This document shows positions 2 through 58,303 of a DNA stretch of 64,000 nucleotides, in pieces (positions within the stretch are counted from its first letter, which is position 1; each line of letters begins with the position of its first letter). The stretch comes from an uncultured Thermodesulfatator sp. (GTDB lineage: Bacteria > Desulfobacterota > Dissulfuribacteria > Dissulfuribacterales > QOAL01). A program made the position numbers and the translations under genes. Below the pieces are notes generated by a model. It worked only from the letters and a program-made list of their open reading frames with translations. It did not search any database and had not been told where the DNA came from. Location: positions 176,156 to 240,155 of the forward strand of contig CAZOMT010000010.1 in the NCBI GenBank assembly GCA_964581255.1, read 5' to 3'.

Positions 2-250
2 CTTAAGGAAAACGGGCCATTCGACATAGTGCTCCTGGATTGGTACATGCCCAAGATGGAAGGGTATGACTGCCTTTTGGAGATCAGAAAAAAGACTGAA
101 TGGAATGATACCAAGGTCATGATGGTCACCACAGAGAATCAGCAGCAAAATGTTATCAAAGCGGTCATGGCAGGGGCTAACGAGTATTTGATGAAGCCTT
201 TTACGCCTGAAATGCTCGAAGAAAAGGTGAGAATGGTACTCGGTTTATGA
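2..250 (+). CDS. cheY: CheY-like response-regulator receiver domain, 5'-truncated by the window edge
   Basis: ORF runs off the 5' edge. The translation LLDWYMPKMEGYDCL...VMMVTTE...GANEYLMKPF covers the phospho-acceptor Asp, conserved Thr and Lys-Pro part of a REC domain. Its stop overlaps the cheB start (ATGA at 247-250). Confidence 0.85.
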   Translation, partial: LKENGPFDIVLLDWYMPKMEGYDCLLEIRKKTEWNDTKVMMVTTENQQQNVIKAVMAGANEYLMKPFTPEMLEEKVRMVLGL

Positions 251-1377
251 CAAGGGTTCTGATTGTCGACGATTCAGTTGTTTTCAGAAAGATACTCGGG
301 GAGGCGCTGGGAAAACATCCTGGTATCTCTGTCGTAGGGACTGCTTGCAACGGCAAGGAGGCCGTACGAAAGGCGCGTCTGCTGAAACCAGATCTCATGA
401 TACTGGATGTGGAGATGCCTGAGATGGATGGCCTGGCCACCCTGGATGAATTGAGAAAACAACGGTTGAAGCCAGGGGTGATCATGTTTTCCACCCTGAC
501 TTCCGCTGGGGCCAAAACCACCATAGAAGCCCTTTCCAAAGGGGCGTTTGATTTTGTGCCAAAACCTACTGGCACTGGTGCATTTGCACAAAGTGTCAAA
601 CGCATCCAACAAGAACTCATACCCAAGATAGAGGCCTTTGGACAAAACAGAAATGGCAATCGGAAGATTGCTTCAAATAGAGGCCCGGCTAGACCAATGC
701 CTGCAGCAAAGGCCCGGAGAAGACCTTCTGCATCACTCAGGAATAACCATCAGGTGCAGAGGAACATCAGGAAGTTCGCAGGCAAGGCACTCAACTTTAA
801 GGCAGAGGCTGTGGCCATCGGAGTTTCAACCGGCGGCCCCAATGCCTTGAACCAAGTGATTCCCAGATTTCCCTCAACCTTCAGGCTGCCAGTGTTCTTG
901 GTGCAGCATATGCCACCTGTATTCACCTCTCAATTGGCTTCGAGGCTGAACCAGAAATCCAAGATCAGAGTTGTGGAGGCGCAAGATGGTATGCAAGTAC
1001 GTCCTGGAACGGTCTATGTGGCGCCAGGCGATTATCACATGGAGGTGACCAGGAAAAACAAGGCAAAGATCATCCGTCTTAACCAAGACCCACCAGTAAA
1101 TAGTTGCAGGCCTGCAGTAGATGTCTTGTTCAGGTCGGTGGCAGAAGTTTATGGGGAAAGAGTTGTGGCTGCAGTGCTTACAGGTATGGGTCAAGATGGT
1201 TTTGAGGGCGCAAAGCTTTTGAAGAAGAAGGGTGCCCGTATAATTGCACAGGACAGACAAACCAGTGTGGTGTGGGGCATGCCCAAGTTGATCGTCGAGG
1301 CTGGCATTGCCGACAGGGTCGTACCCCTGGCAGTAGTAACCTCAACGATCATGGAACTTTCGGGACAGAGATATTGA
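247..1377 (+). CDS. cheB: Protein-glutamate methylesterase/glutaminase CheB (REC + methylesterase)
   Basis: N-terminal REC (VLIVDDS...DLMILDVEMPEMDG...KGAFDFVPKP). C-terminal CheB esterase motifs are GVSTGGPNAL, LVQHMPPVFT and TGMGQDG. Lies in a che operon. Confidence 0.9.
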   Translation: MTRVLIVDDSVVFRKILGEALGKHPGISVVGTACNGKEAVRKARLLKPDLMILDVEMPEMDGLATLDELRKQRLKPGVIMFSTLTSAGAKTTIEALSKGAFDFVPKPTGTGAFAQSVKRIQQELIPKIEAFGQNRNGNRKIASNRGPARPMPAAKARRRPSASLRNNHQVQRNIRKFAGKALNFKAEAVAIGVSTGGPNALNQVIPRFPSTFRLPVFLVQHMPPVFTSQLASRLNQKSKIRVVEAQDGMQVRPGTVYVAPGDYHMEVTRKNKAKIIRLNQDPPVNSCRPAVDVLFRSVAEVYGERVVAAVLTGMGQDGFEGAKLLKKKGARIIAQDRQTSVVWGMPKLIVEAGIADRVVPLAVVTSTIMELSGQRY

Positions 1378-1405
1378 ATAGATTTTTAGCGAGGTAACAG
1401 GGACG

Positions 1406-2224
1406 ATGATTAATCCGGAACAGTTCCGGTTCTTTTCGGAAATGGTCAGACAGAATAGCGGTATATCTCTCCAGAAGGGAAAGGAATACCTGCTTGAGAG
1501 CCGGTTAAACGAACTGGCCAGGGTCCTTGGGCTCAAAAACATAGATGAACTGTACAGAAAGATCAAATTTCAGCCCAATCCAAAACTCAAGGAACAGATA
1601 GTTGAGGCCATGACTACCAATGAGACATACTTTTTCAGGGATCAACATCCTTTCGATGCCCTGAAAAATCATGTCATTCCAGAACTCATGCAAGCCAAGA
1701 AGGACGTGAAAAGGTTGAAGTTCTGGAGTGCGGCATGCTCCACTGGCCAGGAACCGTACAGCATAGCCATGATCCTGAGAGAGCATTTTCAGGCATTAAA
1801 CAACTGGCGTGTGGAGATCATCGCCTCTGATATTTCCCAACAGGCCATCAACAAAGGAAAGGAAGGGCGTTTTACTCAGGTCGAGGTGAACAGGGGCCTG
1901 CCTATCCAACTGCTCATCAAATATTTTAAGCAGAACGGTGCCTTCTGGATAGTTGATTCCAAGCTGAAGAACATGATCAGGTTCAAGAAGGTTAATCTCA
2001 TGGGGCCTTTTATAGGGATATCTGGCATTGATGTAATCATGTGCAGATATGTTCTCATATATTTCGACCAGAAGACCAAAAAAGGGATACTTGAAAAGCT
2101 GGTCAAGACCTTAAATCCAGGGGGATATCTCTTCCTTGGCGCCACAGAGACGCCTGTGGGTCTGCCTCCCAGCATGAAGAGGAAGACCTTTGGCAGGGCA
2201 ACCTGTTGGCAGAAGAGCGCATGA
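1406..2224 (+). CDS. cheR: Chemotaxis protein methyltransferase CheR
   Basis: TNETYFFRD motif plus the SAM-binding region FWSAACSTGQEPYSIAM...ASDIS. Operon context. Confidence 0.9.
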   Translation: MINPEQFRFFSEMVRQNSGISLQKGKEYLLESRLNELARVLGLKNIDELYRKIKFQPNPKLKEQIVEAMTTNETYFFRDQHPFDALKNHVIPELMQAKKDVKRLKFWSAACSTGQEPYSIAMILREHFQALNNWRVEIIASDISQQAINKGKEGRFTQVEVNRGLPIQLLIKYFKQNGAFWIVDSKLKNMIRFKKVNLMGPFIGISGIDVIMCRYVLIYFDQKTKKGILEKLVKTLNPGGYLFLGATETPVGLPPSMKRKTFGRATCWQKSA

Positions 2225-2257
2225 TTTTGAAAGTGATCACAAAAAGGAGAAATTGAT

Positions 2258-4969
2258 ATGGGTATGGAAGACGACATTCTAAAAGATTTTTTGGCAGAAT
2301 CCAAAGAAAACCTGGAATTACTGGACCAGCAATTTGTGGAGTTGGAACAGGAGCCAGACAACGAAGAGCTTATCAAAAGCATATTCAGGACCATTCATAC
2401 CATAAAAGGCACTTCTGGTTTCTTCGGCTTCACCACTCTTGAGGGAATAGCCCACTTTGCCGAGGATATCCTGTCGAAATTGCGAGATGGTATTGTACAG
2501 GTAAACGAAGAGATCACTACAATTCTGCTTCAGTCAGTTGATTATATCAAGGCCATACTGGCTGAACTAGAAAACACAGGGCAGGAACCTGTTGATACCG
2601 AGTATCTCGATTTCATAGTTGATCTGCGTAATTTCTCTGAAAAGATCGCAAAGAACGCACCAGCAGATACAGAAGAAGCCAACGAGCAGCAAGCCCCTAA
2701 AGAGGGGGAAGAGACCGAGGAAGCCGAGGCCAAGGAAGAGGTTCAGGAAAAGGCTGAGAAAGACCAAGAAGAAGCACCATCAGAACCTCGAAAGGAAGAA
2801 AAGGCTGCTCAAGCCTCTGAAAAGGAAAAGGCACCAGCTGCCGAGAAGAAAAAACAGCCAAAATCCAAACCAGCTGCCAAGAAGCGGGTTGCTCAGCCGC
2901 CTTCCGCGCATCTTGCCGAAACACATGTGAGGATAGATGTACATCTTCTGGATCAACTGATGACCCTTGCTGGCGAATTAGTCCTTTCGAGGAACAGGAT
3001 GACGCAGTTGGCCAGTAAGCTCAATGATCCCGATTTTGTTACTGCCAACCAGCGAATGAGCCTGGTGGTTACCGAACTGCAGGAACAGATAATGAAGACC
3101 AGGATGCAGCCTATAGGGAATGTCTTCAACAAATTTCCTAGGATAGTGAGGGATCTTGCAAAAACAGCGGAAAAAAAGGTCCAGTTGAAGATTGTAGGTG
3201 CAGAAACGGAACTGGATCGTTCCATCATAGAGAGCATCAAAGACCCATTGACCCATATGGTCAGAAACTCCATAGATCATGGTATAGAGCCTCCAGACAT
3301 CCGTGTCCAGAAAGACAAGCCCCCAGTCGGCAGCCTCACCATGAAGGCATACCACGAAGGAGGTCAGGTAATAATTGAGATCACAGACGACGGTGCTGGG
3401 ATAGATCCTGACAAGCTTCGCGCAAAGGCCGTGGAAAAGGGTATTATTACAGAAGAACAGGCCAGGAGCTTGAGTAACCGCGAGGCACTCATGCTCATAT
3501 TCCAGCCTGGTTTCTCTACTGCGGAAAAGGTCACCAATATTTCTGGCAGGGGTGTTGGCATGGACGTTGTCAAGACCAATATAGAGAAACTCGGAGGCAC
3601 TGTTGAGCTCGAAAGCGAAATAGGCACTGGCACCACAGTCAAGATCAAGATACCCCTCACCCTGGCCATCATACCTGCCCTCATAGTTACTAGTGCAGGA
3701 CAGCGTTACGCGATTCCACAGGTCAACCTGGTCGAACTTGTACATCTCAATCCCCAGGCCTCCAAAAAGGACGTTCAGATTATAGGAAATTCTGAATTTT
3801 ACCGTTTGAGGGGTGAGATTTTGCCGTTAATCAGGCTCAGAAAGGCACTATCTGTGCCTGAGGATGAAGAAAGCCAAGAGGAAACAGACACAGGCATGAA
3901 TATAGTGGTGTTGAATGCAGGCGGTAGGCTCTTTGGCCTGGTGGTTGATGCCATTAGCGATTCAGAGGAAATCGTTGTCAAACCCCTTGGCAGCCATCTC
4001 AAGAACATACCTGTCTTTGCTGGCACCACCCTTATGGGGGATGGGCGTGTTGCGCTTATTCTCGACATAGTCGGCATCACCTCTTCTATTGCAAGCTCTG
4101 GAGATGATTCCATGAAACAGGCCGCATCCATTTCAGGTACAGGAATGGAGGATGAGCACCAGTTTCTCCTTCTGTGTTCTGTTGATCCGCAGGAATTTTT
4201 CGCACTGCCCCTGGCCTTGGTCAACAGGTTGGACAAGATCAAGGCTTCTGACCTCGAATACGTGGGTGGCAAGGAGGTCATTCAATACAGAGGCCACTCC
4301 ATGCCAGTGATCCGCCTGGAAAACTACCTGTCTGTATCACCTCTGCCAGAACAGGATGAATATCATCTCATCGTGTTCCATATGAACAACAAGGATATCG
4401 CATTCCTGGTCTCTCAGATAGAAGACAGCCTGGATCTTGCCATTGATGTGGAAGAAGGGATCTTCAAGCAGGAAGGCATATTAGGTTCCGCCATAGTCAA
4501 GGACAGGACCACCCTGTTTTTGGATGTATATCAGATCATCAACATGCATGACCCAGAATTCTTCATGACGGAAGATCTCCATGCCGAGGAACCTGCGCGG
4601 ATCCTTCTGGCGGAAGATTCCACATTCTATAGAAACATGCTCACTTCATACCTGACTGCTGCTGGTTATGAGGTTATAGAGGCAGAGGATGGCCTAAAAG
4701 GCTGGCAGCTCTTCCAGTCAGAGCCAGTCGATCTTGTGATCACAGATATAGAGATGCCTCACATGGACGGCCTGGAATTCACCAGAAAGATCAGGAGCCA
4801 GAACAGCGACATCCCGATAATCGCTGTCACATCACTTTCAGGCGAGGAAAACAGGCAGAAGGGTGCAGAGGCTGGAATAAGTGATTACCAGGCCAAGCTC
4901 GATAGGGATCAAGTGCTTCAGGCGGTAAGCAGGCTCCTTAGTGAAAGGTCCCTGGAAAATGCAGCTTGA
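2258..4969 (+). CDS. cheA: Hybrid chemotaxis histidine kinase CheA (Hpt - low-complexity linker - dimerisation/HATPase - CheW-like - C-terminal REC)
   Basis: Hpt site RTIHTIKGTSG. HATPase boxes HMVRNSIDHGIE, DDGAGID and GRGVGMDVV. CheW-like region follows. Terminal receiver is ILLAEDS...DLVITDIEMPHMDG. An E/K/A/P-rich linker is encoded at about 2650-2900. Confidence 0.9.
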   Translation: MGMEDDILKDFLAESKENLELLDQQFVELEQEPDNEELIKSIFRTIHTIKGTSGFFGFTTLEGIAHFAEDILSKLRDGIVQVNEEITTILLQSVDYIKAILAELENTGQEPVDTEYLDFIVDLRNFSEKIAKNAPADTEEANEQQAPKEGEETEEAEAKEEVQEKAEKDQEEAPSEPRKEEKAAQASEKEKAPAAEKKKQPKSKPAAKKRVAQPPSAHLAETHVRIDVHLLDQLMTLAGELVLSRNRMTQLASKLNDPDFVTANQRMSLVVTELQEQIMKTRMQPIGNVFNKFPRIVRDLAKTAEKKVQLKIVGAETELDRSIIESIKDPLTHMVRNSIDHGIEPPDIRVQKDKPPVGSLTMKAYHEGGQVIIEITDDGAGIDPDKLRAKAVEKGIITEEQARSLSNREALMLIFQPGFSTAEKVTNISGRGVGMDVVKTNIEKLGGTVELESEIGTGTTVKIKIPLTLAIIPALIVTSAGQRYAIPQVNLVELVHLNPQASKKDVQIIGNSEFYRLRGEILPLIRLRKALSVPEDEESQEETDTGMNIVVLNAGGRLFGLVVDAISDSEEIVVKPLGSHLKNIPVFAGTTLMGDGRVALILDIVGITSSIASSGDDSMKQAASISGTGMEDEHQFLLLCSVDPQEFFALPLALVNRLDKIKASDLEYVGGKEVIQYRGHSMPVIRLENYLSVSPLPEQDEYHLIVFHMNNKDIAFLVSQIEDSLDLAIDVEEGIFKQEGILGSAIVKDRTTLFLDVYQIINMHDPEFFMTEDLHAEEPARILLAEDSTFYRNMLTSYLTAAGYEVIEAEDGLKGWQLFQSEPVDLVITDIEMPHMDGLEFTRKIRSQNSDIPIIAVTSLSGEENRQKGAEAGISDYQAKLDRDQVLQAVSRLLSERSLENAA

Positions 4970-4996
4970 TGAATCTCATGACAGGAGAAAAGGACA

Positions 4997-5521
4997 ATGA
5001 ATAAAACAGGAGAAAACAATCTGCCATCTGTTTCCGAAAATTCCAAGGTGACTGACATAAGGGTTGGCGAGACAAAACAGTTTGTCACATTCTATTTTGG
5101 CAGGCATTTCTTTGGCCTTCCCATAGACGAAGTGATAGAGATAAATAAGGCCTTAGACATCACACCTGTCCCTCTAGCCCCCAGTTATGTTTCAGGGGTC
5201 ATAAACCTCAGGGGCCAGATACTCACTGCCATAAATCTGGCTGCCAGGATTGGGCTCATATCCCAAAGGGACAGCAATGAAGAGGGACACCTTAACAACG
5301 TGATAATGGGGAATCGGGAAGAGCCAGTGAGTCTTCTTGTGGAAAGGATTGGCGATGTCATGTCGATTCCAGTGGAAAAGATCGAATCAGTGCCTGACAT
5401 GATCCATGGAATAGACATAAAATATGTGAATCAGGTCTGTAAGCTCAAGGATCAGCTCCTTATTATACTCAACAGCCAAGCATTGGAGGAGGCTGGTTCC
5501 TCTGGGAACGGGCCCAATTGA
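4997..5521 (+). CDS. cheW: Chemotaxis coupling protein CheW
   Basis: 174-aa single CheW-like domain (FVTFYFGRHFFGLPIDEVIEI...VSGVINLRGQILTAINL). Operon context. Confidence 0.85.
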   Translation: MNKTGENNLPSVSENSKVTDIRVGETKQFVTFYFGRHFFGLPIDEVIEINKALDITPVPLAPSYVSGVINLRGQILTAINLAARIGLISQRDSNEEGHLNNVIMGNREEPVSLLVERIGDVMSIPVEKIESVPDMIHGIDIKYVNQVCKLKDQLLIILNSQALEEAGSSGNGPN

Positions 5522-5597
5522 CGGCCAGAGGGGAAGCTGGCCGATTGGTGAGTTGTATTTCCTGAGCTAGGCCCTTGGAACCGTCTCACTAGGCCCT

Positions 5598-6626
5598 ATG
5601 AACTTCAAAGACAAGGACCCGTATACCCTGCTTCAAATCTCAAAGGATGCGGGTCCATCTGAGATTAAGAGGGCTTACCGTAGATTGGTCAGAAGGCTTC
5701 ATCCTGACGTTTGCGGGATGAGCATGGCCAATATCAAGAGATTTCTGGATATAAAAGATGCCTATTCTTACCTGATCCAAAAGCATTCCACTCCATCAGC
5801 ATCGTGTGCCGAATCGGGCAGAAAGATTGATGATGACAAAAACCACCTCAAAGATGGCCTGTTTATCTTCAAGACCCTTTCTCTCAAGGAGGCCCTTCAC
5901 GGGACTAAACTTTCCCTGAACATCACGAAACGGGAAGACTTTTGCCCTAGATGCAGAGGACTCGGCAAGTTTCCGGCTCACACCAAGGGCTCCTGCAGCA
6001 AATGTTCAGGCAACGGGTACGTATTCATACCTTGGGCAGGAGAGAGGCTCAAGGTGGTCTGTTCGAGGTGCAGTGGAACAGGGGCCAGGGGGCTTGAGAC
6101 ATGTCCTGTGTGCAAAGGGCGTGGGAAGGTGTTTAAAGAACAGGTGGTGACTGTTTCTATTCCAGGAGGCGTTAAAGATGGTCAGACCATAAGATTTCCT
6201 GGGGCAGGACCCATTGACCCTGCCACCAAGAAGCGCACCCCCCTTTTTGTCACAATAGAGGTCAAGCTGCCAGAGGGTTGGCAGATTCGTGAAAGAGATA
6301 TCGTCTCTGTTCTCGAAGTAGATTGCTGGACATGTCTTGGGGGCGGCAATGTCTGTGTGAAGACCATGGACGGTGAGACGACCGTCTGGATAAGGCCAGG
6401 CACAGTGCATGGAGATACAGTCGTTCTACCAGGATGCGGTTGGATTGGTGAAGATGGATCACGTGGGGATCATATCTGCAAAATCAAGGTAAAAAGTCCC
6501 GTAGGGCCCTGCCCTCCCCTGGCAAAGACATATTTAAACATCCTAAAATCACTATGGCCTGCAAAGGGTTTTGAATACAAGAGCCTTGCGGACGATCGTA
6601 AAAAACGTGATGATCGATTCAAGTGA
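5598..6626 (+). CDS. DnaJ-like protein: J domain plus four CxxCxGxG zinc-finger repeats plus DnaJ C-terminal-like region, without a G/F-rich segment
   Basis: J domain with HPD (YRRLVRRLHPDV). Zinc-finger repeats are CPRCRGLG, CSKCSGNG, CSRCSGTG and CPVCKGRG. Confidence 0.7.
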   Translation: MNFKDKDPYTLLQISKDAGPSEIKRAYRRLVRRLHPDVCGMSMANIKRFLDIKDAYSYLIQKHSTPSASCAESGRKIDDDKNHLKDGLFIFKTLSLKEALHGTKLSLNITKREDFCPRCRGLGKFPAHTKGSCSKCSGNGYVFIPWAGERLKVVCSRCSGTGARGLETCPVCKGRGKVFKEQVVTVSIPGGVKDGQTIRFPGAGPIDPATKKRTPLFVTIEVKLPEGWQIRERDIVSVLEVDCWTCLGGGNVCVKTMDGETTVWIRPGTVHGDTVVLPGCGWIGEDGSRGDHICKIKVKSPVGPCPPLAKTYLNILKSLWPAKGFEYKSLADDRKKRDDRFK

Positions 6627-6748
6627 AAAAAATAATATATCGACGTCAACTATAGAAATATTTTGGGAAAATCATGTAGTTACCGATAAAGAGTTCTAAA
6701 AGGGGCTGTTTTTTGAAAACCCGGAAATTTATTAGGAGGGCCTAGGAG

Positions 6749-9070
6749 TTGATCAAGAAAGCGTTGAAAAGGTTTACAGATACTACTTTGATATTTCGTA
6801 TACTCGTTGGAATAAGTTTCATCGTTTTTGCCCTTACTGCCTTACAGATAATCATCTTGAAGTCTTCTGCCTCGTCTGAGAAAGATAAGATTGTCCAGCA
6901 GGCACTTGCCAACAAAGACGCACTTATCAGGGAGGCGGACCTTATTGCAGACAGAAACATGGAACTAGCGTACCTGTTTGCCAGTATGGACAAGGTAAAG
7001 GCGGCGATGGCATCAGGAGACAGGCAACTACTCTTGTCCACTGTCAAGCCAGTAGTGGACAGGTTGAATCAGGGCAGGGACATAGCCATGAAGGTACATT
7101 TTCATGTGCCGCCTGGCAGATCCTTTTTGAGGGTTTGGAAACCCAAGAAAAATGGAGACGATATATCTGGCTTCAGAAAGACAGTGGTAGATGTGCTTAC
7201 GAGTGGAAAAGCTGTTAAAGGCATTGAGGCAGGCAGGGTGGGCCTTGCCATAAGGGGAGTTGCCCCAATCTATGTTGAAGGGAGCCAGAAGCCAGTAGGA
7301 AGTGTTGAGGTAGCCACAAGCCTGTCTGCAGTAGCAAAGGGCGTCCAAAAATCCATCCATGGAAAGATACAGCTCTTTGCATTACAAAAAGTAAAGGCTA
7401 CTGCCGCGAGCTCCAAACTTCAACATCTTGGGCGGTTTACCATACTTACAAGTAATCCTCTGGACAAGATGGTATTGGATGACGCCTTTCTGGAAGAGGC
7501 CTTTTCCAAGGGCCAAGCGGTTAAGGACCTTGGAAATCTACTGGTTGCTGCAGTCAAGATCCCCGACTACAACGATGTGCCCACAGGTGTTTGTGTACAG
7601 TACATTGATCTGACAGCCCTACAAAAACAAGTGGAGTCACAGGTCATCCAGTCGAGCGGCATAGCTGTGCTGGCAGGACTTATTGCCATAGTGATCACTA
7701 TATTTGGCCTGAAGATGAATCTTCAGCGCCCACTTTACAACACAGTCGCTGCCTTGGAAAAGGCCACACATGGTGATCTCACCAAGTATGTGGAGCCCCA
7801 AGGCGCCTTTGAGATCAAAAACATAGGGAAAATGGCAAATAATGTCATATATACTACTGGACATCTGTTAAATCTCTTGAAAAAACAATCTAAGGGATTG
7901 AAGGACACCACAAAGGAGTTGAGTGCAGCCACTGATATTGTCAAGGAAGGCTCAAATGATATAGACAAGGCTGCAAAGGAGGTAGCTGATTCCTCCTCTG
8001 AGGCTTCGGCTACCCTTGAAAACGTAGCCAACTCCACCCAGGAGTTGGCAGATGCAACAAACGAGATAGCTCAAAACGTTTCGGATACAGCCCGTGCAAC
8101 CAACGAGGCAAAGGAAAAGGCACAATACACCAATGAGGTCATACAGGAACTTGGTGAAAACTCTGAAAAGATAGGCGGCATCATCCAGGTGATCAATTCT
8201 ATAGCCGAACAGACGAATCTCCTGGCACTCAATGCCACCATAGAAGCTGCAAGGGCCGGGGATGCAGGTAAGGGCTTTGCAGTGGTGGCAAACGAGGTAA
8301 AAGAACTTGCAAAACAGACCTCAGAGGCCACAGAGGAGATCACCAGAATGATTCAGATCATTCAAAAAGGCACATCCGATGCCGTGACATCGGTTCAGGA
8401 AATAACTACCAGCGTGTCTGAAGTGAATGATTTTGCAAATACCATTGCAAGTGCTGCTGAGGAACAGACGGCAACCGTATCCGAGATCAATGAAAGTGTC
8501 TCCTTTGGAGCAAAAAAGGTCAAGACCCTTGAAAGACAGGCTCACAACCTGGCAGACCAGGCCCAGGATTTCTCACATATTGCCACGACCATTGAAACGG
8601 TTCAGAACATAACCGTGGCATTTTCCAACCAGCTATCTGATGTCACCGACCTTTACAAGGTGGACTACGATGTACTGCATGAGGTCTCAAAATATGCCAC
8701 CCCAAAGGTTCAACTTACAGGCAGTATGCTGGGCCAGTTTGCCTGGCTGGAAAGTATAAGACTTGCCATCATGGAAGACCGTATCCCAGATATCAAATAC
8801 GACCCTGGCCACTGTTTTATTGGGAAATGGATAAACAAGTACATGAATGACAACGCCGTGCCTTCAGGCATGATGGAGGAGCTGAATTCTGCCCACCTGA
8901 AGCTCCACGAACAAGCTGGATTGCTAAAGGAGATGACAGAAAAGGCAGCACCCAGGGAAGAGAGGCTGAAGTTTTATATGGATGAGATCCAGCCTCAGTT
9001 TATGACAATGCTTCATATGATAAGGACGCTCTTAGACAGGATAGACGATGAGAAGTTTCTAAAGGCATAG
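6749..9070 (+). CDS. Methyl-accepting chemotaxis protein with periplasmic Cache-type sensor, HAMP, MA signalling domain and a C-terminal CZB-like (zinc-binding) domain
   Basis: TTG start preceded by AGGAGG. TM helix, then the Cache-like block [15 protein letters not shown]...GDDISGFR. Second TM plus HAMP. MA core is [38 protein letters not shown]-terminal CFIGKW...21 aa...HLKLH fits the CZB pattern Cx[ILV]Gx[W]-x18-27-HxxxH. Confidence 0.9.
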
Positions 9071-10628: not shown

Positions 10629-11066
10629 CTATAAAAGTGAATTCAATTTTTCTCGTATCTCTTGTGCCGCAACAGCTCCTACGATGCTATCAACCAATTC
10701 CCCATTTTTGAAAAACAGAAGTGTAGGAATGCTTCGTATCTGAAATCTTTGGGCGGTTGAGGGATTTTCATCAACATTCAACTTTCCAATAACAGCCCTG
10801 TTTCCAAATTCCCTTGCAAGTTCCTCAATCACAGGTGCTATCACACGGCATGGTCCACACCAAGGTGCCCAGCAGTCCACAAGTATTGGCCTCGAAGATC
10901 TGATCAGGTCGTCAAAATTTGCATCTGTGACTATGATAGGCTCGCCTGTGCCTGTGTGTAATGGTGTTTTACATCGTCCACACCTGGGGCTGCTGTTTAT
11001 GCGGCTCAACGGTACCCGGTTTTTAACACCGCAGTTTGGACATCGCAAAATGATCGTCTGTTCCAT
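10629..11066 (-). CDS. Thioredoxin with N-terminal zinc-finger extension (Trx2-type)
   Basis: N-terminal CPNCGVKN...CGRCKTPL pair followed by the WAPWCGPCR active site. Confidence 0.85.
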   Translation of the reverse strand: MEQTIILRCPNCGVKNRVPLSRINSSPRCGRCKTPLHTGTGEPIIVTDANFDDLIRSSRPILVDCWAPWCGPCRVIAPVIEELAREFGNRAVIGKLNVDENPSTAQRFQIRSIPTLLFFKNGELVDSIVGAVAAQEIREKLNSLL

Positions 11067-11198: not shown

Positions 11199-11987
11199 AT
11201 GCCAAGCGCTTTCTGCCCATCACATTTGAAAAGGCCTGTTTATCTGGTCCTTATTCTGCTTCACCTATTTCTTTATGGATGTGCCTATATGGTGAAGACA
11301 CCCTCTATTATGATTCCCGAGTCTGAAAAGACCGGGGATCTCAAACAAGACCTGCTAAATAGAGCCAAATCCATTGAGAGCCTGAAGATCCAAGGACGAC
11401 TCAAGATCTCCAATCGGACCAGTAAATTCCCTTCATTTAATTGTGCCATATGGTTTTTTAGCAAAAAGGGAAAGCTGCTGTTGAGGATCAGAGGCTCGGG
11501 TCCTTTTGGGGTTACTGTATTTGATCTCCTCGCGGATCGTCGTGAGGTTTGGATATATCTTCCACAGCAGGGTAAGATCCTGAAGGGTAACACCTTCTTC
11601 ACTGACTATGGCAACATCAGTGTGGACAAAGCAATCAGATTGATGGAGATGTGCCTCAACCCGTGGTCACCAGCAAGATATTGCAGCCCTATGCGATTGC
11701 TGAAGAATGGCTCAAACGGCATTGCCAGCCTCGTGTGCTGCCTATTTGGACAGGATATTACTCTCAGTTACCGCCTTCCTGGGCTAACGCCAATCATTTT
11801 TGACAGTGGCCTCACTTCGATAACCTTTAGTACCTCACAAGAGCTTGAGGCAGATGCATATCCCCGGGAAATTTCATTTCTTTTAAAAAACGATGGAATC
11901 AAGGGCACTCTTTCTATCAGAGAAATAAAATTCAATAATCTGTCCCCCAACAGCCCAATTTTTGACAGGGCTCTGTTTAGCCATTGA
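11199..11987 (+). CDS. Putative outer-membrane lipoprotein (LolB-like/DUF4292-like)
   Basis: Lipobox-like LFLYGC after a hydrophobic N-terminus, with a beta-rich body. The family call is by eye only. Confidence 0.45.
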   Translation: MPSAFCPSHLKRPVYLVLILLHLFLYGCAYMVKTPSIMIPESEKTGDLKQDLLNRAKSIESLKIQGRLKISNRTSKFPSFNCAIWFFSKKGKLLLRIRGSGPFGVTVFDLLADRREVWIYLPQQGKILKGNTFFTDYGNISVDKAIRLMEMCLNPWSPARYCSPMRLLKNGSNGIASLVCCLFGQDITLSYRLPGLTPIIFDSGLTSITFSTSQELEADAYPREISFLLKNDGIKGTLSIREIKFNNLSPNSPIFDRALFSH

Positions 11988-11990
11988 TCT

Positions 11991-12896
11991 TCAATGCAGT
12001 TTGGGGCCGCCACAACCCTTGCCGGTCTTTTCGTTCAGCATATAGAGCCTGTTTTTATACCGTTTAACGAGATAACCATCTTTCTCCTTCTTCAAAAACA
12101 GCGTGATCAGGCCTATCGATTTCCCCAAGGGATGACTGCTTACAATTAGGCAGTTTCCTTGTTTGGTGGGAAGGCTAGTGGGATAAGTGCGGCCACTCGA
12201 AATGACAAGAGCGATTTCCGGATGTCTTTGGAGAAAGCCAATCTCAAGCCCCATGGGCATGGAAGAAAGGGCAACTATGAAATCCGCATTCTTCTTTATC
12301 TTGGCCATGTACCTGTCAAGGGATGGATCGTTTTCCCTAATCTCTATCTCCTTGTTCTCTACAAGGCCAGGCATCAATATGCGTCCAGAAAGGCCGACAA
12401 CGGCAACTTTGATTCCCCTGACATCATATATACGAAATGGTGGGAACAAGGGCCTGCCATTGCAGTAGAGGTTGGCTGAGACCAAATGTTCGCCTGCAGG
12501 GTCCAAGTCTTTTAGAAATTGGCAGCCTGCAGAAAGGTCCTCGACGCCTATGCCTGCCAATTTATAGCCCATCTTTTTGTATTCATTGAAGATACTTTCA
12601 GCCTTTTTCTTAGTCAGCTCGCTGACGTGCCTGCCAGGAGGGAAAAGGAACCTGCCACCGTCCAGCAAGAGGTCTATGTGTTTGTCCTTACTATTTTTCC
12701 GGATCCAACTGATCCGCCGGAGGAGCCCTCCGATTTGCCTGCCGCCTCAGGAATGGACAGGCTCGATCTGGCCCCAAGTGTTGGTGGTATATGCAATGGA
12801 TACTTGAGGTTCATCCGTTTGGGTGGTTTCTGATAGGCCGATGCCAGGAACAAGAAACAAGACAAGGAAAAGCAGGGAAAGATAGTTTTTTTTCAT
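11991..12896 (-). CDS. Secreted 5'-nucleotidase/metallophosphoesterase-like protein interrupted by one in-frame TGA (12747-12749): candidate selenoprotein, alternatively a pseudogene
   Basis: ATG at 12896 overlaps the stop of the upstream HD gene (ATGA). Signal peptide MKKNYLSLLFLVLFLVPGIGLSE. The reading frame continues across TGA as ...WGQIEPVHS-TGA-GGRQIGGLLRRISWIRKNSKDKHIDLLLDGGRF..., joining track ORFs 12747-13037 and 11991-12668, which are exactly in frame. Two hairpins lie 14-47 nt after the TGA. Confidence 0.5.
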
Positions 12897-13504
12897 GGTA
12901 AATTCTCCTTTTTTGCGCCATCGTGCAACTTGGCAAAAGATTCCATCCACCAACTTGCCCAATGGATATCCTTGATCTTTGAAGCAAGTTCTTTGGCCTG
13001 GTTGGTTACAAGCCTCTTTTCCACGAATCGTACCCACGATGCAGCATTGGGATTTCCACAGTCCATCTGTTCCTTGAGCGAAATAAGCATATCTATCTGG
13101 TCTGCATCGCGGGCAAGCATTGCCTCAAGGGTCCTGCCTTGTTCATATTCCTCATATAGCTCAATGAGATCTTGTGCAAAGAAGCAGCCATCCACTGCAT
13201 CTTTAAAAGCCCTCATCTCGTCTCTTTTTACATATAACTTATGAACTGCATTTGCGTCACCTGTCCTTGCCTCTGGTAAGTCGTGTACCAAGGCCATTAG
13301 GACAAGTCTTTCTATGTTTGCTCCTGGCACCATCTTTCCAAGGAGCATGGCTATAAAGGCGGTGGAAAAACTGTGGGCTGCACAATTTTCGGCTCCACTG
13401 CCTAAGAAGGCGTAACCTGTCCGCATGGTTCGCTTCAACATGGCTGCTTCAAAAATGAGATTGACCATCGGGTTTATCTGCTCAGGATCAATAGACTTAG
13501 CCAT
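12893..13504 (-). CDS. HD-domain phosphohydrolase (YfbR-type 5'-deoxynucleotidase family)
   Basis: Has H...HD...D motifs (AAHSFS, LVHDLPEARTGD, ARDADQIDML). Confidence 0.8.
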   Translation of the reverse strand: MAKSIDPEQINPMVNLIFEAAMLKRTMRTGYAFLGSGAENCAAHSFSTAFIAMLLGKMVPGANIERLVLMALVHDLPEARTGDANAVHKLYVKRDEMRAFKDAVDGCFFAQDLIELYEEYEQGRTLEAMLARDADQIDMLISLKEQMDCGNPNAASWVRFVEKRLVTNQAKELASKIKDIHWASWWMESFAKLHDGAKKENLP

Positions 13505-22831: not shown

Positions 22832-23884
22832 TTACATCCCTCTGATCCTATCTGAAACCCCCCTGGTAAGTTCCAATGCCTTGATGGCCAGCTCCTGTTT
22901 CAACAAACCAGTGCCACAACTTGGGGTTATGAGGCAACTTTTCCTGATGAGATCCTGGTCGGGACAGAGTCTTGACACCTGGCTTTTCCAAAGTCCCAAC
23001 AGGGATTCCACTGTCTCTTTTTGGAGATCTGCCTCGTTCAAGGTGGGAACGATGCCCCAGGCAAGTATGCCCCCAGCCTTGAGAAAATCCAGCAGCCTGT
23101 CTTTGAAAAGAAATATCTTGTCGAAGTAGCTGTAGGCGTCGAAGCTCAATATGTCCAGGGGTGTTTCGAGGACAAGGGACCAGTCTGTGTTGGCACAGAC
23201 GTGAATTCCTGAGATACCGCCTGCGTCCCTTATTTCTTTCAATGGTTCGCTTATGTCCGAGATGGCATCCTGCCTGGTGATACCTACCATTTGAGACGAG
23301 CCGAAACCAGACAATGCAGGCTCATCGAGAAAACATATCACGTTTGGGCAGAACCTTTTCATCTGTTCAACCTGGTATCTGGCCTTGAGGGCTATTGCCT
23401 TGGTGACTGCCTCCCTCAGCGTAGGGTTGAAATATGCCATCTTGCCATCACTATCCTTAATGCCTGTGAGCATGGTAAAGGGGCCGGTAATTTGTCCCTT
23501 GAGCGCGACAGGCTTGGTATCCAGTTCAGAAACTGCCTTTAAGAAACTTTCAAAGCCCTTGGCAGTTTCTTTGGAAAAGGCAAAGCGCGACCCTTCGAGT
23601 GGCTTTCCTCCTTCTGTGACAGCAAGATAATCCTCAAAAAATTCAAGGACTTCCTGATCAAATTCTGGAGAGGAGGTGTCAAAGAAAACCGAACCTTCCT
23701 TATCCCGTACGGCCGGAAGCCCTTCGGAAAACTGTGTCAGGAGCCTTTCCTTTGGATAACAGGGTAACTGGGGCCAAAGAGGGATCTCTTTCATGTATTT
23801 GAGAATGAGGGCGGTCGCCTCTGTATGGTCCTTGAGGGGCAAGCTGCCTATTAGAGTAGGCAAGCAATCTGGTTGAAAATTCAT
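22832..23884 (-). CDS. Cobalamin-independent methionine synthase (MetE C-terminal-like / Meth_synt_2) family protein
   Basis: PTLIGSLP, CFLDEPAL and GIHVCANTDW resemble the MetE-like catalytic barrel. Substrate unknown. Confidence 0.5.
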   Translation of the reverse strand: MNFQPDCLPTLIGSLPLKDHTEATALILKYMKEIPLWPQLPCYPKERLLTQFSEGLPAVRDKEGSVFFDTSSPEFDQEVLEFFEDYLAVTEGGKPLEGSRFAFSKETAKGFESFLKAVSELDTKPVALKGQITGPFTMLTGIKDSDGKMAYFNPTLREAVTKAIALKARYQVEQMKRFCPNVICFLDEPALSGFGSSQMVGITRQDAISDISEPLKEIRDAGGISGIHVCANTDWSLVLETPLDILSFDAYSYFDKIFLFKDRLLDFLKAGGILAWGIVPTLNEADLQKETVESLLGLWKSQVSRLCPDQDLIRKSCLITPSCGTGLLKQELAIKALELTRGVSDRIRGM

Positions 23885-54660: not shown

Positions 54661-56478
54661 CTATTCATTGTTTTCACCATCCATCTTTGCAAGGTCTTCA
54701 AAACGGATATCTATTCCAAGGACTCCCACTATCTCATCGTTTTCGTTTCTGATGGGACCAGAAACAGTTATACACAGTGCATTTGTGATCCTTGATGTGT
54801 AGAAGTCGGTTACGTGGATCTTGCCATCCTTGATGGGGGCAATAAACCAAGGCCTGCCAGAAAAATCACTGTCCAGTTGGAAGGATGCGTACTTGCTCCT
54901 GTCTTCGATGTGGGTGATATTGTGGGTGATCTTTTCTCCCTCGGCATTTACCACGTAAAGAAATTGGATGAAGGGATTTTCGTCAAGGACCTTCTTGAGC
55001 ATGGGCTCCATGCGCTCTGGATCCATGGAACGTATCTCTGGATTTTCCACAAGCTCTTCCACAAGGTGAAAGGCTAGGCTGTGCGCCCTCTTTTTCAGCC
55101 TGTCGAAGTCAGATGTGAAAAGCTCTGGCAGGTATTTTCTCGCAAGGGATTCCATCTCAGACTTTGACATAGATGTCACCCTGCCATCTTCATACTGCTT
55201 CATTATCTGCTTGTATATCTTTACTATTCCAGGATGTCTCTTGTCTATCTGGCCAGCCCCCTTGAGCCCCAGATGGGAGTTTATCCAATGTGCAATACCG
55301 GCTGTGCCTGACGTATCTGAGATGATGACAGAGACCGGCCTGTTGAGGATCTTTGCAGTATCAAAGATGTTGTATATCTCCTCATTCTTGAGAAGTCCGT
55401 CTGCATGCACGCCAGCGCTTGTGGCATTGAAATCTTCACCCACCAGGGGATAATTGGCCGGAATGTGAACCTTGAGTTCCTTCACAAAATACTCAGCCAT
55501 CTCGGTAATCACTCTGGTGTCAATGCCGTCTGTTTCCCCTCTGAGTGCTATTCTTTCGATTAGCAACGCCTCGAGGGGGGTGTTGCCTGTCCGTTCTCCA
55601 AAGCCGAGAAGGGTGCCATTTATGACTCCGCATCCATAAAGCCATGCTGTGGTGGCGTTTATCACTACCTTGTGAAAATCGTTGTGGCCATGCCACTCAA
55701 GAAGCTCACCAGGCACTCCTGCATCGTCTATCATGGCACGCACCACCTTGGGCACACTTCTTGGAAGAGCTGCTCCAGGGTATGTGATGCCATAGCCCAT
55801 GGTATCGCACATCCTTATCTTGACATCTATGCCCGTCTCTTCCCTGAGCTTCATGAGTTCTATTGCAAAGGGAACGCAAAAACCATATATATCCGCCCTT
55901 GTGATGTCCTCAAAATGGCACCTGGGCCTGATCCCAAGCTCAAGGGCTGCCCGCACAATGGAAAGATAACCATCCATTGCCTCTTTCCTGCTCTTTTTGA
56001 GCTTGAGGAAGATGTGGTAATCAGAGGCAGATGTGAGGATGCCTGTTTCTTCAAGCTCCATTTCCTTCACAAGCTGAAGATCATCCTTTTTGGCCCTGAT
56101 CCAGCCTGTTACCTCAGGGAATCGGTACCCCTTCTCCTTGCAGACCTCTACCGCCTTCTTGTCCTTGTCAGTATAGAGAAAGAATTCAGACTGCCGGATA
56201 ATCCCCCTGGGGCCGCTCATTTTATGGAGAAAATCAAAGATCTTGCTTATCTGCTCCACTGTATAAGGAGGTCTGGCCTGTTGGCCATCCCTGAAGGTGG
56301 TATCAGTAATAAGCATTTCCCTGCAGGGCTGGGGTACCAAGTACTTGTTGTCAAAGGCGATACGACAGACCTCCTCGTAAGGGAACAGGTCCCTCATGAG
56401 ATCCGGCTCCTCAACGTCTGCCAGTTTATATTCCTTTGTATAGGTGAGTAAGCCTTTGTCAGGGTTCCATTTGATCAT
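54661..56478 (-). CDS. HMGL-like (isopropylmalate/homocitrate/Re-citrate synthase family) enzyme fused to a C-terminal Cache/PAS-like domain
   Basis: LITDTTFRDGQQA and EWHGHNDFH catalytic motifs. The last ~150 aa contain RPWFIAPIKDGKIHVTDFYTSRITNALCITVSGPIRNENDEIVGVLGIDIRFEDL. ATG at 56478 (GGAGAAGGAA RBS) is preferred over the track's start. Confidence 0.75.
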   Translation of the reverse strand: MIKWNPDKGLLTYTKEYKLADVEEPDLMRDLFPYEEVCRIAFDNKYLVPQPCREMLITDTTFRDGQQARPPYTVEQISKIFDFLHKMSGPRGIIRQSEFFLYTDKDKKAVEVCKEKGYRFPEVTGWIRAKKDDLQLVKEMELEETGILTSASDYHIFLKLKKSRKEAMDGYLSIVRAALELGIRPRCHFEDITRADIYGFCVPFAIELMKLREETGIDVKIRMCDTMGYGITYPGAALPRSVPKVVRAMIDDAGVPGELLEWHGHNDFHKVVINATTAWLYGCGVINGTLLGFGERTGNTPLEALLIERIALRGETDGIDTRVITEMAEYFVKELKVHIPANYPLVGEDFNATSAGVHADGLLKNEEIYNIFDTAKILNRPVSVIISDTSGTAGIAHWINSHLGLKGAGQIDKRHPGIVKIYKQIMKQYEDGRVTSMSKSEMESLARKYLPELFTSDFDRLKKRAHSLAFHLVEELVENPEIRSMDPERMEPMLKKVLDENPFIQFLYVVNAEGEKITHNITHIEDRSKYASFQLDSDFSGRPWFIAPIKDGKIHVTDFYTSRITNALCITVSGPIRNENDEIVGVLGIDIRFEDLAKMDGENNE

Positions 56479-56503
56479 TTCCTTCTCCTGTTTTGTTCTT
56501 GTG

Positions 56504-58303
56504 TTATGAGGTGCCCTCTTGCCGCTGCCAGTCTGGCCTGAGATATAACTCCGCAAGTTGTGCCATGCTTACTTCGGCAGGGGCGTGGGTCATAAGGCAT
56601 TGGGCCTTTTGGGTCTTTGGAAAGGCTATTACATCCCTAATGGTGTCTCTTCCTGCCATTAGCATGACCAGCCTGTCAAGGCCAAAGGCAATACCTCCGT
56701 GAGGTGGCGCACCAAGGGTGAGGGCCTCCAAAAGAAAGCCAAATTTTTCTTCAGCCTCCTTATCATCAATATTCAGGGCCTTGAAGACCCGCTTCTGCAC
56801 TGCCTCCTGATGGATACGGATACTGCCTCCTCCTATTTCTATTCCATTTAGCACAAGATCATAGGCTCGGGAGCGTACCTTGGCTGGATCGGTTTCAAGA
56901 AGATCCAAATCCTCTTTGCTAGGCGCCGTAAAGGGATGATGCAGGGCCTTGAAGCGTCCTTCGTCCTCATCGAACTCAAGAAGTGGAAAGTGTGTTACCC
57001 AGACGAAATTAAAACCCCTTTCAGGGATGAGGTTACGCCTTCTTGCAAGCTCTAACCTCAGCTCGCCAAGCACCCTGTATACTGTATTTAAGGTGTCTGC
57101 ACCGAAAAAGAGTATGTCTCCAGGAACAGCGCCAAGCCTTTCCTTGATGGCCTCTTGCTCTCGAGCTTTAAAAAATTTCGCTATGGGAGATTGCCAACTG
57201 CCGTCTTCCTTTATCTTTACCCATGCAAGGCCCTTGGCACCAAAAGACTGGGCGAATTCTGTCAGAACGTCCAGGTCTTTCCTGGAAAGATCTGCCATGC
57301 CTTTTCCGTTAATGGCCTTGACTACTCCACCAGTGTCCACAATGGTATTGAACACCTTTAGACCACAACCAGCTGCTATATCTGTAATGTCTACAAGCTC
57401 AAGATCAAACCTCGTATCAGGTCTGTCTGTGCCAAACCTTTCCATGGCCTCCTGATAGGTGAGCCTTGCAAATGGTGGCTTAAGCTCCACTCCAAGGGCC
57501 TCTGAAAAGATATGCTTCATGAGTCCTTCTATAAGGCCCATGATGTCTTCTTCGTTTATAAACGACATCTCCATGTCGAGCTGAGTAAACTCAGGTTGCC
57601 TGTCAGCCCTCAAGTCCTCGTCCCTGAAACAGCGAACTATCTGATAGTATCTTTCCATGCCAGCAATCATCAGTATCTGCTTAAAAAGCTGTGGCGACTG
57701 TGGAAGCGCGTAAAATCTTCCAGGGTTCACCCTGCTTGGCACCAAATAATCCCTGGCGCCTTCGGGAGTGCTTCTGGTGAGCATGGGGGTTTCTATCTCC
57801 AAAAAATCCTGCTGATTCAGATACTGCCTCATAGCCTGGCAAACCTGATGCCTCAAAGCGAGGTTTGCCACCATGTGTGCCTTTCTAAGATCAATATAAC
57901 GGTATCTTAGGCGTACACTCTCTGAAACCTCTTTTTCCTCGTCCAGGGGAAAGGGAGGAGTCTTGGAGGTGTTCAAGATCCGAAGTTCTTGGCAGGCAAC
58001 TTCCACCATGCCTGTTTTTATTTTGGGATTTTCCATGCCCTCAGGACGCCTTCTCACCTTGCCCCGTACGGCTATTACGTACTCGCTCCTCAAGGAATGG
58101 GCCTTTTCGTGGGCTCCTGCATCCACCTCTGGGGCGAAAACCACCTGGGTGATGCCCTTTCTATCTCTCAAATCGACGAATATCAGCCCGCCATGATCAC
58201 GCCTGCGATGCACCCAACCCATGAGAACCACTTCGGTCTCAAGGCTCTGTTCGGTAATGCTATAACAGTCATGGGTGCGTTTCAGCCCTCCCATTGATTC
58301 CAT
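56504..58303 (-). CDS. aspS: Aspartate--tRNA ligase
   Basis: GWVHRRRDHGGLIFVDLRD, FRDEDLRADRQPEFTQLD and GGIAFGLDR. Start taken at MESMGGLKRTH (58303), with an AGGAG RBS inside the hisS 3' end. Confidence 0.9.
   Translation of the reverse strand: MESMGGLKRTHDCYSITEQSLETEVVLMGWVHRRRDHGGLIFVDLRDRKGITQVVFAPEVDAGAHEKAHSLRSEYVIAVRGKVRRRPEGMENPKIKTGMVEVACQELRILNTSKTPPFPLDEEKEVSESVRLRYRYIDLRKAHMVANLALRHQVCQAMRQYLNQQDFLEIETPMLTRSTPEGARDYLVPSRVNPGRFYALPQSPQLFKQILMIAGMERYYQIVRCFRDEDLRADRQPEFTQLDMEMSFINEEDIMGLIEGLMKHIFSEALGVELKPPFARLTYQEAMERFGTDRPDTRFDLELVDITDIAAGCGLKVFNTIVDTGGVVKAINGKGMADLSRKDLDVLTEFAQSFGAKGLAWVKIKEDGSWQSPIAKFFKAREQEAIKERLGAVPGDILFFGADTLNTVYRVLGELRLELARRRNLIPERGFNFVWVTHFPLLEFDEDEGRFKALHHPFTAPSKEDLDLLETDPAKVRSRAYDLVLNGIEIGGGSIRIHQEAVQKRVFKALNIDDKEAEEKFGFLLEALTLGAPPHGGIAFGLDRLVMLMAGRDTIRDVIAFPKTQKAQCLMTHAPAEVSMAQLAELYLRPDWQRQEGTS

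Follow-up and report, generated by a model that had tools for sequence, protein, structure and literature searches.

A predicted selenocysteine codon in the gene of a short secreted protein with a metal-less 5'-nucleotidase fold

Two open reading frames listed on the minus strand of a 64 kb stretch of DNA (the window in the following, that is, the whole stretch that was analysed) run in the same frame and are parted by a single TGA codon. Does this codon end a gene, has it recently broken one, or is it itself translated? An earlier reading, made from the letters of the window without database searches (the sequence-only reading), had proposed that it encodes selenocysteine (Sec) in a secreted, UshA-like protein with degenerate metal motifs. 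The comparative evidence assembled here argues strongly for Sec decoding, and, as judged from sequence comparison, the TGA almost certainly encodes selenocysteine in a secreted protein with a metal-less 5'-nucleotidase fold.

UshA-like selenoproteins are a known kind of protein. They were listed as previously characterised (COG0737, CxU) in the 2008 Global Ocean Sampling analysis, with 76 Sec and 92 Cys sequences, and even at that time ranked with the more abundant families of ocean metagenomes (PMC2398784). They also appear in reviews of 2022 and 2026, with the models NF041198 (CxU) and NF049981 ('family 2', CxxU) being cited (PMC9312934, PMC13188914); the UshA-like entries in selenoproteome surveys to which the sequence-only reading had referred are thus documented in all three sources. 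NF049981 is listed as annotated in GenBank, and the Thermodesulfobacteriota are among the most selenoprotein-rich bacteria (PMC13188914). We found no experimental study of UshA-like family members in the cited selenoprotein literature. The proteins described below form a short subfamily that is missed by curated models and public annotation.

One reading frame across the TGA

The frame opens at the ATG at 12896, runs through 49 codons to the TGA at 12749-12747 and through another 251 codons to a terminal TGA at 11993-11991. Between the ATG and 11991, it contains no further in-frame stop besides the TGA at 12749-12747, so that the two listed frames, 12747-13037 and 11991-12668, are indeed split by this codon only, as had been claimed. 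The features of the gene and its upstream boundary are:

11991..12896, minus strand: complete predicted selenoprotein gene, 301 codons including one Sec codon, stop TGA at 11993-11991 (from the frame, orthologues with the same architecture and best matches to UshA-like selenoprotein models)
12747..12749, minus strand: UGA codon 50, interpreted as selenocysteine (all orthologues have TGA at this column, and it aligns with Cys in P0109, P0137, P0043 and others)
12831..12896, minus strand: predicted Sec-type signal peptide MKKNYLSLLFLVLFLVPGIGLS, residues 1-22 (from its n-, h- and c-region pattern)
12905..12909, minus strand: Shine-Dalgarno sequence AGGAG, 8 nt 5' of the ATG (read from the sequence)
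12893..13504, minus strand: HD-domain (YfbR-like) gene, upstream and translationally coupled (from the Pfam families of its equivalents in L001-L010)

The gene product reads MKKNYLSLLFLVLFLVPGIGLS...AYTTNTWGQIEPVHS-U-GGRQIGGLLRRISWIR..., and its predicted signal peptide has no lipobox Cys; a hydrophobic N-terminus equivalent to it is present in all orthologues. The start at 12896, the signal peptide and the ATGA that the start codon (12896-12894) shares with the stop of the HD gene (TGA, 12895-12893) had all been pointed out before and were found again on re-reading, and the Shine-Dalgarno sequence can now be added. Since the listed frame 12747-13037 begins at a GTG inside the HD gene, the true start is ATG 12896. 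The listed frame 11991-12668 begins at an internal TTG without a Shine-Dalgarno sequence, in agreement with the earlier statement that the downstream piece lacks a ribosome-binding site of its own.

Eleven relatives were found among 5.8 billion proteins. With the exception of P0011 (322 aa), the most distant one, they are 182-240 residues long and each begins after the TGA column, and such N-terminal truncation is typical of gene callers that fail to recognise a Sec codon and treat it as a stop. An exact look-up of P0001 returned no record. Orthologous DNA was collected from the loci of the protein relatives and by pattern scans of 185,579 species genomes and of JGI metagenomes. All of the approximately 18 distinct orthologues obtained in this way, which share 35-67% identity with the window protein or among themselves, carry TGA at the identical column, and none was seen with a sense codon there. 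Their frame leads from a signal peptide over AYT[TC]NTWG and the TGA to GG[RK]xxGG...RR...DLLLDGG, with an invariant AYTxNTWG before the TGA, GGxxxGG behind it and no start codon in between. The hosts are Thermodesulfobacteriota, Thermodesulfatator-like and 'Deltaproteobacteria' metagenome-assembled genomes, and the gene order proC-holA-HD gene is kept at the orthologous loci. The window itself stems from a metagenome (run SRR8542060), in which look-ups of its edge genes matched short Logan contigs. All public copies of the gene are annotated as truncated 'hypothetical protein', because it scores below both curated selenoprotein models. As this alignment shows, selection at the protein level constrains the frame both before and after UGA codon 50, and a conserved in-frame TGA flanked by conserved sequence is among the features that a selenoproteome survey looks for (PMC13188914).

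A recent nonsense mutation that split an ordinary UshA-like gene would account for the split or truncated form that gene callers have given the gene in all public records (relatives of 182-240 aa). It would not account for one and the same TGA column in about 18 orthologues with identities as low as 35%, nor for the strong conservation on both of its sides. Strains with a sense codon, which the sequence-only reading had named as the mark of a pseudogene, did not turn up among these orthologues, and the TGA is therefore not a recent nonsense mutation; given the conserved TGA and its flanks, the probability of a pseudogene is negligible and this explanation is effectively refuted.

The ORF list and the public annotations, both of which give two pieces, could also be taken literally, as two products: a secreted peptide of 49 residues, terminated by the TGA, and a cytoplasmic protein of some 225 residues, initiated at an internal TTG or ATG. 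Against this, the invariant GG[RK]xxGGxxRR...DLLLDGG after the TGA precedes any start codon in most orthologues, the called starts vary by locus, the internal TTG has no ribosome-binding site, Cys-containing relatives are continuous across the TGA point, and the downstream piece alone would be left without the first β-strand of the fold. Because invariant residues after the TGA lie 5' of any usable start codon, two separate genes are untenable; this reading, which we regard as very improbable, was rejected.

For a single gene that is translated through the TGA, distant relatives indicate what the codon stands for. When 1.84 billion cluster representatives were searched with a profile, there were 5,175 matches at E <= 0.001 and 20 at E <= 1e-30, the closest of which are all N-terminally truncated, too. 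In full-length distant relatives, Cys is found at the Sec column (PCPYC-RGELGG in P0109, PCETC in P0137, EPCGC in P0043, P0134 and P0159), and Sec would therefore replace the second Cys of a C-x(1-2)-C motif before GG[LI]ARR. The alignment of homologues that had been called for at this column hence yields TGA in all orthologues, amid strong conservation on both sides, and Cys in the distant full-length relatives. No Cys-containing member was detected inside the orthologue group among the 1.84 billion representatives, so Cys homologues aligned to the TGA, another feature considered in the survey (PMC13188914), are provided by distant relatives only. Many of the Cys relatives are fused to C-terminal CxxCH multihaem or DsbA-like domains, which argues, by analogy, that the C-x(1-2)-C motif does periplasmic redox work. 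P0029 (1207 aa), which carries two CxC modules, as well as P0150 and P0119 combine one or two such UshA-like modules with DsbA-like and multihaem cytochrome c domains; fusions of this type point to a large uncharacterised periplasmic redox family on a dead-nucleotidase scaffold.

The YfbR-like HD gene is always directly upstream (equivalents in L001-L010) and often translationally coupled, the two genes sharing an ATGA both in the window and in L001. Proteins of the YfbR-like type carry the annotation of cytoplasmic 5'-deoxynucleotidases. The persistence of this link across both clades of orthologues, which are introduced below, suggests an operon; no functional connection is evident. On the other side, a convergent ORF of 262 residues with a lipoprotein-like N-terminus (LFLYGCAY; 11199-11987, plus strand) adjoins the selenoprotein gene in clade A loci only; it has no NCBIfam match, and its counterparts have no Pfam match. 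A thioredoxin with an N-terminal zinc ribbon and a WCGPC motif (10629-11066, minus strand) is encoded close to the selenoprotein gene in the window as well as in L001, L003 and L004; it is cytoplasmic by sequence and so probably unrelated to the selenoprotein. Elsewhere, the window holds a chemotaxis cluster (247-9070, plus strand) with cheB, cheR, a cheA-receiver hybrid, cheW, a DnaJ-like gene and a gene for a 773-residue methyl-accepting protein, a 350-residue ORF without a Pfam family at E <= 1e-8 (22832-23884, minus strand), and a 631-residue ORF (54661-56556, minus strand) that joins an HMGL-like domain (83-355) to an incomplete C-terminal Cache/MCP-like sensor domain (498-623, cut short by the stop); this ORF is either an unusual fusion, the remnant of a gene or an artefact of assembly.

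RNA structure downstream of the UGA

Insertion of Sec in bacteria involves a SECIS element in the mRNA, and two hairpins had been noted behind the TGA, CGGAGG-GCU-CCUCCG at 12732-12718 and CGGAUC-AGUUG-GAUCCG at 12716-12700. Both are located exactly there, the former with one additional base pair:

12717..12733, minus strand: hairpin 1, UCGGAGG-GCU-CCUCCGG; 7 bp, loop starting with G, 20 nt from UGA to loop, -9.1 kcal/mol; best SECIS candidate
12700..12716, minus strand: hairpin 2, CGGAUC-AGUUG-GAUCCG; 6 bp, loop AGUUG, spacing 36 nt, -7.3 kcal/mol; candidate for a second or auxiliary SECIS stem

Together, they make up the predicted minimum-free-energy structure for the 60 nt that follow the UGA (-19.9 kcal/mol). 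This fold is unremarkable when measured against dinucleotide shuffles (z = -1.19) and more stable than expected from synonymous-codon resampling (z = -2.45, p = 0.01). The same holds for the orthologues: in 16/16, the 51 nt that follow the UGA fold more stably than synonymous resamples encoding the same peptide (z from -1.65 to -3.7, mean -2.6). A hairpin at the position of hairpin 1 exists in all 16 orthologues tested, in a register that differs between the clades, and hairpin 2 is kept in 14 of them, being missing in L005 and L007. One pair in hairpin 2 covaries clearly (U-A in 9, C-G in 4, U-G in 2), and hairpin covariation as a whole, assessed with an RNAalifold consensus and pair counting, is not significant, with 53 of 500 shuffles reaching the observed score.

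By the published rules for bacterial SECIS elements, hairpin 1 of the window passes and hairpin 2 just fails on energy; the strict bSECIS rules are passed by only 9 of the 16 orthologues. Hairpin 1 of the window is thus a candidate for the SECIS structure that the selenoproteome survey looks for (PMC13188914). A scan of the whole window against Rfam at gathering thresholds gave no match, which is no surprise, since no single family covers the bacterial SECIS elements. There is a SECIS-like structure 3' of the UGA that appears to be under selection, as a candidate element only. Of the earlier SECIS proposal, the stable SECIS-like stems at these sites have held up; its preference for hairpin 2 is the less likely choice, given that hairpin 1 occurs in every orthologue and, in the window, fits the spacing and energy rules. 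Since it is universal among the orthologues and matches the model spacing, hairpin 1 is more likely to be the SelB site, a choice that is not firm. In the proposed mechanism, SelB with Sec-tRNA(Sec) would be recruited by the stem-loop or stem-loops that start 13-14 nt past the UGA, with hairpin 1 as its more likely site and hairpin 2 possibly extending or assisting it; Sec would then be inserted and translation would continue.

The genes for this machinery lie elsewhere, if present: selA, selB, selD and tRNA-Sec were found neither in the 64 kb window nor in the fetched orthologue loci, using tRNA scans of the window and 22 loci, the SelD motif G[CU]GCK, and Pfam searches of ORFs of SelA, SelB or SelD size, which turned out to be aspS, hisS, radical SAM, FapA and others. 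A scan of the window for a second TGA-split selenoprotein gene gave nothing convincing. The lack of Sec machinery in the window, along with the weak hairpin covariation, would be compatible with recoding without selenium, that is, with read-through of the UGA by a near-cognate tRNA (Trp, Cys, Arg) or with a genome-wide reassignment. However, TGA ends 24 of the 53 mapped ORFs in the window; it is an ordinary stop and therefore not reassigned, and reassignment was rejected on this ground. Recoding without selenium is further at odds with Cys in relatives at this column, which is the signature of a Sec/Cys exchange, with the closest curated families being selenoprotein families, with the richness of Thermodesulfobacteriota in selenoproteins (PMC13188914), and with the stable structure just 3' of the UGA at SECIS-like spacing. 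We consider it unlikely and retain Sec as the reading of codon 50.

A 5'-nucleotidase fold with a replaced metal site

In a Pfam scan, the protein matches no family, including Metallophos. The NCBIfam ranking is led by the two UshA-like (seleno)protein models, ahead of 5'-nucleotidases and SoxB, and a profile of the orthologues, when compared with solved structures, matches 3ivd (1e-13), 2z1a (4e-9) and also UshA; both results agree with the UshA-type resemblance around the TGA that had been seen by eye. An AlphaFold (AF2) model of residues 51-301 (pLDDT 77.8) superimposes on UshA, SoxB, 3ivd and 2z1a with TM scores of 0.65-0.70, which drop to 0.34-0.38 when normalised to the target, with only the N-domain of these enzymes of about 520 residues being covered. 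The fold is that of the N-terminal metallophosphoesterase domain of 5'-nucleotidases and SoxB.

The three metal-binding motifs that the sequence-only reading had called replaced are so in profile alignments to solved 5'-nucleotidases as well:

12771..12794, minus strand: degenerate motif I, AYTTNTWG for xHTNDxHG; Asp to Asn39 and His to Trp41 in alignments to 3ivd and 2z1a; invariant in orthologues
12651..12665, minus strand: degenerate motif II, LDGGR; bridging Asp of GD replaced by the invariant Arg82, G81-R82 standing at GD
12531..12548, minus strand: degenerate motif III, GVEDLS for GNHEFD; Asn to Val118 and His to Glu119 in the HMM alignment

The HMM alignments moreover place S212 at the His of motif IV and SSGR at GHxH, and, according to these alignments, all seven dimetal ligands are replaced. 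The C-terminal substrate- or nucleotide-binding domain is absent, as the protein ends at residue 301. From these replacements, we infer that the protein is not a dimetal phosphoesterase and would have lost phosphoester hydrolysis. Sec itself is located in a loop seven residues past the former motif I; the true enzymes have no Cys in this loop. UshA, 5'-nucleotidase and CD73 (1ush, 2z1a, 3ivd) therefore share with the window protein the N-terminal alpha/beta sandwich fold and a periplasmic or secreted location, whereas their dimetal ligands (DxH, GD, GNH(E/D), H, GHxH) and catalytic His are replaced in it, and their possession of a C-terminal substrate-binding domain and lack of a Cys in the Sec loop are the opposite of what it displays. 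SoxB (TIGR04486; 2wdc, 4uwq) is an equally good structural match (TM 0.69), and clade B matches it down to E = 5e-14, but this di-manganese hydrolase is about 560 residues long and its metal site is intact, and scores here are 22-51 bits against a cut-off of 550. By analogy, SoxB-like periplasmic sulfur chemistry on the Cys of a carrier protein is a plausible functional neighbourhood.

The most likely function, again by analogy, would be redox or ligand chemistry at Sec. The product would be exported via its Sec-type signal peptide, and the selenol, in the loop after the first β-strand (the former motif I), would serve as a redox or ligand-binding centre. Such a role would match the C-x(1-2)-C/U motif of the large periplasmic family, whose members are often fused to multihaem cytochromes c and DsbA-like domains. 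Overall, the observations are best explained by one gene for a secreted selenoprotein of about 280 residues in its mature form with a Sec-centred, non-hydrolytic role, an explanation that we hold to be highly probable.

A third UshA-like group and its two clades

The top-scoring family of the window protein is NF041198 (UshA_like_PCGU; E = 4e-43), with which it shares the N-terminal 5'-nucleotidase-like domain, the signal peptide and the Sec/Cys position before GG[LI]xRR. Yet it covers the profile only at positions 3-271 of 519 and scores 147.8 bits (orthologues 148-156) against a cut-off of 275. Where NF041198 has P-C-G-[UC] (EPCG[CU], CxU), the window protein has P-V-H-S-U and clade B P-C-P-S-U; and where a member such as P0043 (567 bits) continues through a long linker into a C-terminal domain containing four CxxCH haem sites, no linker, domain or CxxCH of this kind occurs in the window protein. 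NF049981 (UshA-like (seleno)protein family 2; E = 1e-20) resembles it in its single-domain size, with a profile of 262 positions, and clade B has the CxxU spacing of this model. The motif itself is found only in clade B, with Val or Ile in place of Cys in the window and clade A, and the cut-off of 140 bits lies above the scores of the window (74) and the orthologues (67-95). With respect to both models, the orthologue group behaves as a third, short, single-domain UshA-like family. Other UshA-like genes with an in-frame TGA were encountered in L037 (about 687-830, EPCGG-U) and L012 (4803-5969, GCPT-U; 225 bits against a cut-off of 275); they likewise fall below the curated cut-offs, and the curated models therefore miss several Sec-containing branches.

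The orthologues fall into two clades. Clade A comprises the window, L001, L002, L003, L015 and L016, to which L004, left out of the clade alignment owing to an upstream run of N, was added by its P-I-H-S-U motif; clade B comprises L005, L007, L009, L018-L023 and L025. At and around Sec, they differ as follows (positions in the window protein):

Position 38: T in clade A; C in clade B (T in L025)
Position 47: V or I in clade A; C in clade B
Position 50: U in clade A; U in clade B
Position 114: A in clade A; C in clade B (I in L021 and L022)
Position 115: G in clade A; C in clade B (S in L025)
12522..12524, minus strand: Cys125, invariant in clade A, not C in clade B; candidate relocated partner thiol
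12462..12464, minus strand: Cys145, invariant in clade A, not C in clade B

While clade B keeps PCPSU, the CxxU motif has become VxxU in clade A (Val47 in the window, Val or Ile across the clade). Clade A is without all the Cys that cluster near the former active site in clade B and has gained two new invariant ones, leaving Sec as the sole invariant redox-active residue across both clades. In clade B, C38, C47, C114 and C115 around Sec may be fitted for binding a metal or a cluster, or for multi-thiol redox chemistry. In clade A, Sec would act alone or with the clade-specific Cys125 or Cys145, because the partner Cys of CxxU is Val or Ile there. The window protein and its closest relative, L001 (also L014/L028), additionally carry a short Cys-bearing C-terminal tail with a GCG context (window 11991-12040, minus strand), reading ...TGKGCGGPKLH in the window and ...GKRGCGQSLRR in L001; the other clade A members are without it. 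This Cys could be a resolving Cys, or meaningless.

As a tentative proposal, which may well prove wrong, the orthologue group could be an obligate-Sec third UshA-like family in which a chalcogen-based site has been built from the dead dimetal pocket, clade A using either a lone selenol or a relocated resolving Cys. If true, this would be a natural wholesale swap of the partner thiols of a selenoprotein around a fixed Sec, and could point to an undescribed periplasmic sulfur, selenium or metal-handling activity.

The current understanding of UshA-like selenoproteins is not overturned by these findings. That the partner cysteines have all been exchanged between the clades while Sec stayed invariant is a neat observation on evolution, and a third model would correct annotation in Thermodesulfobacteriota genomes from hydrothermal and sediment sources. 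With neither metal site nor cytochrome domain nor Cys orthologues, the short form is a minimal version that isolates the Sec-bearing module, and as such offers a convenient biochemical entry point to a long-known, uncharacterised type of selenoprotein.
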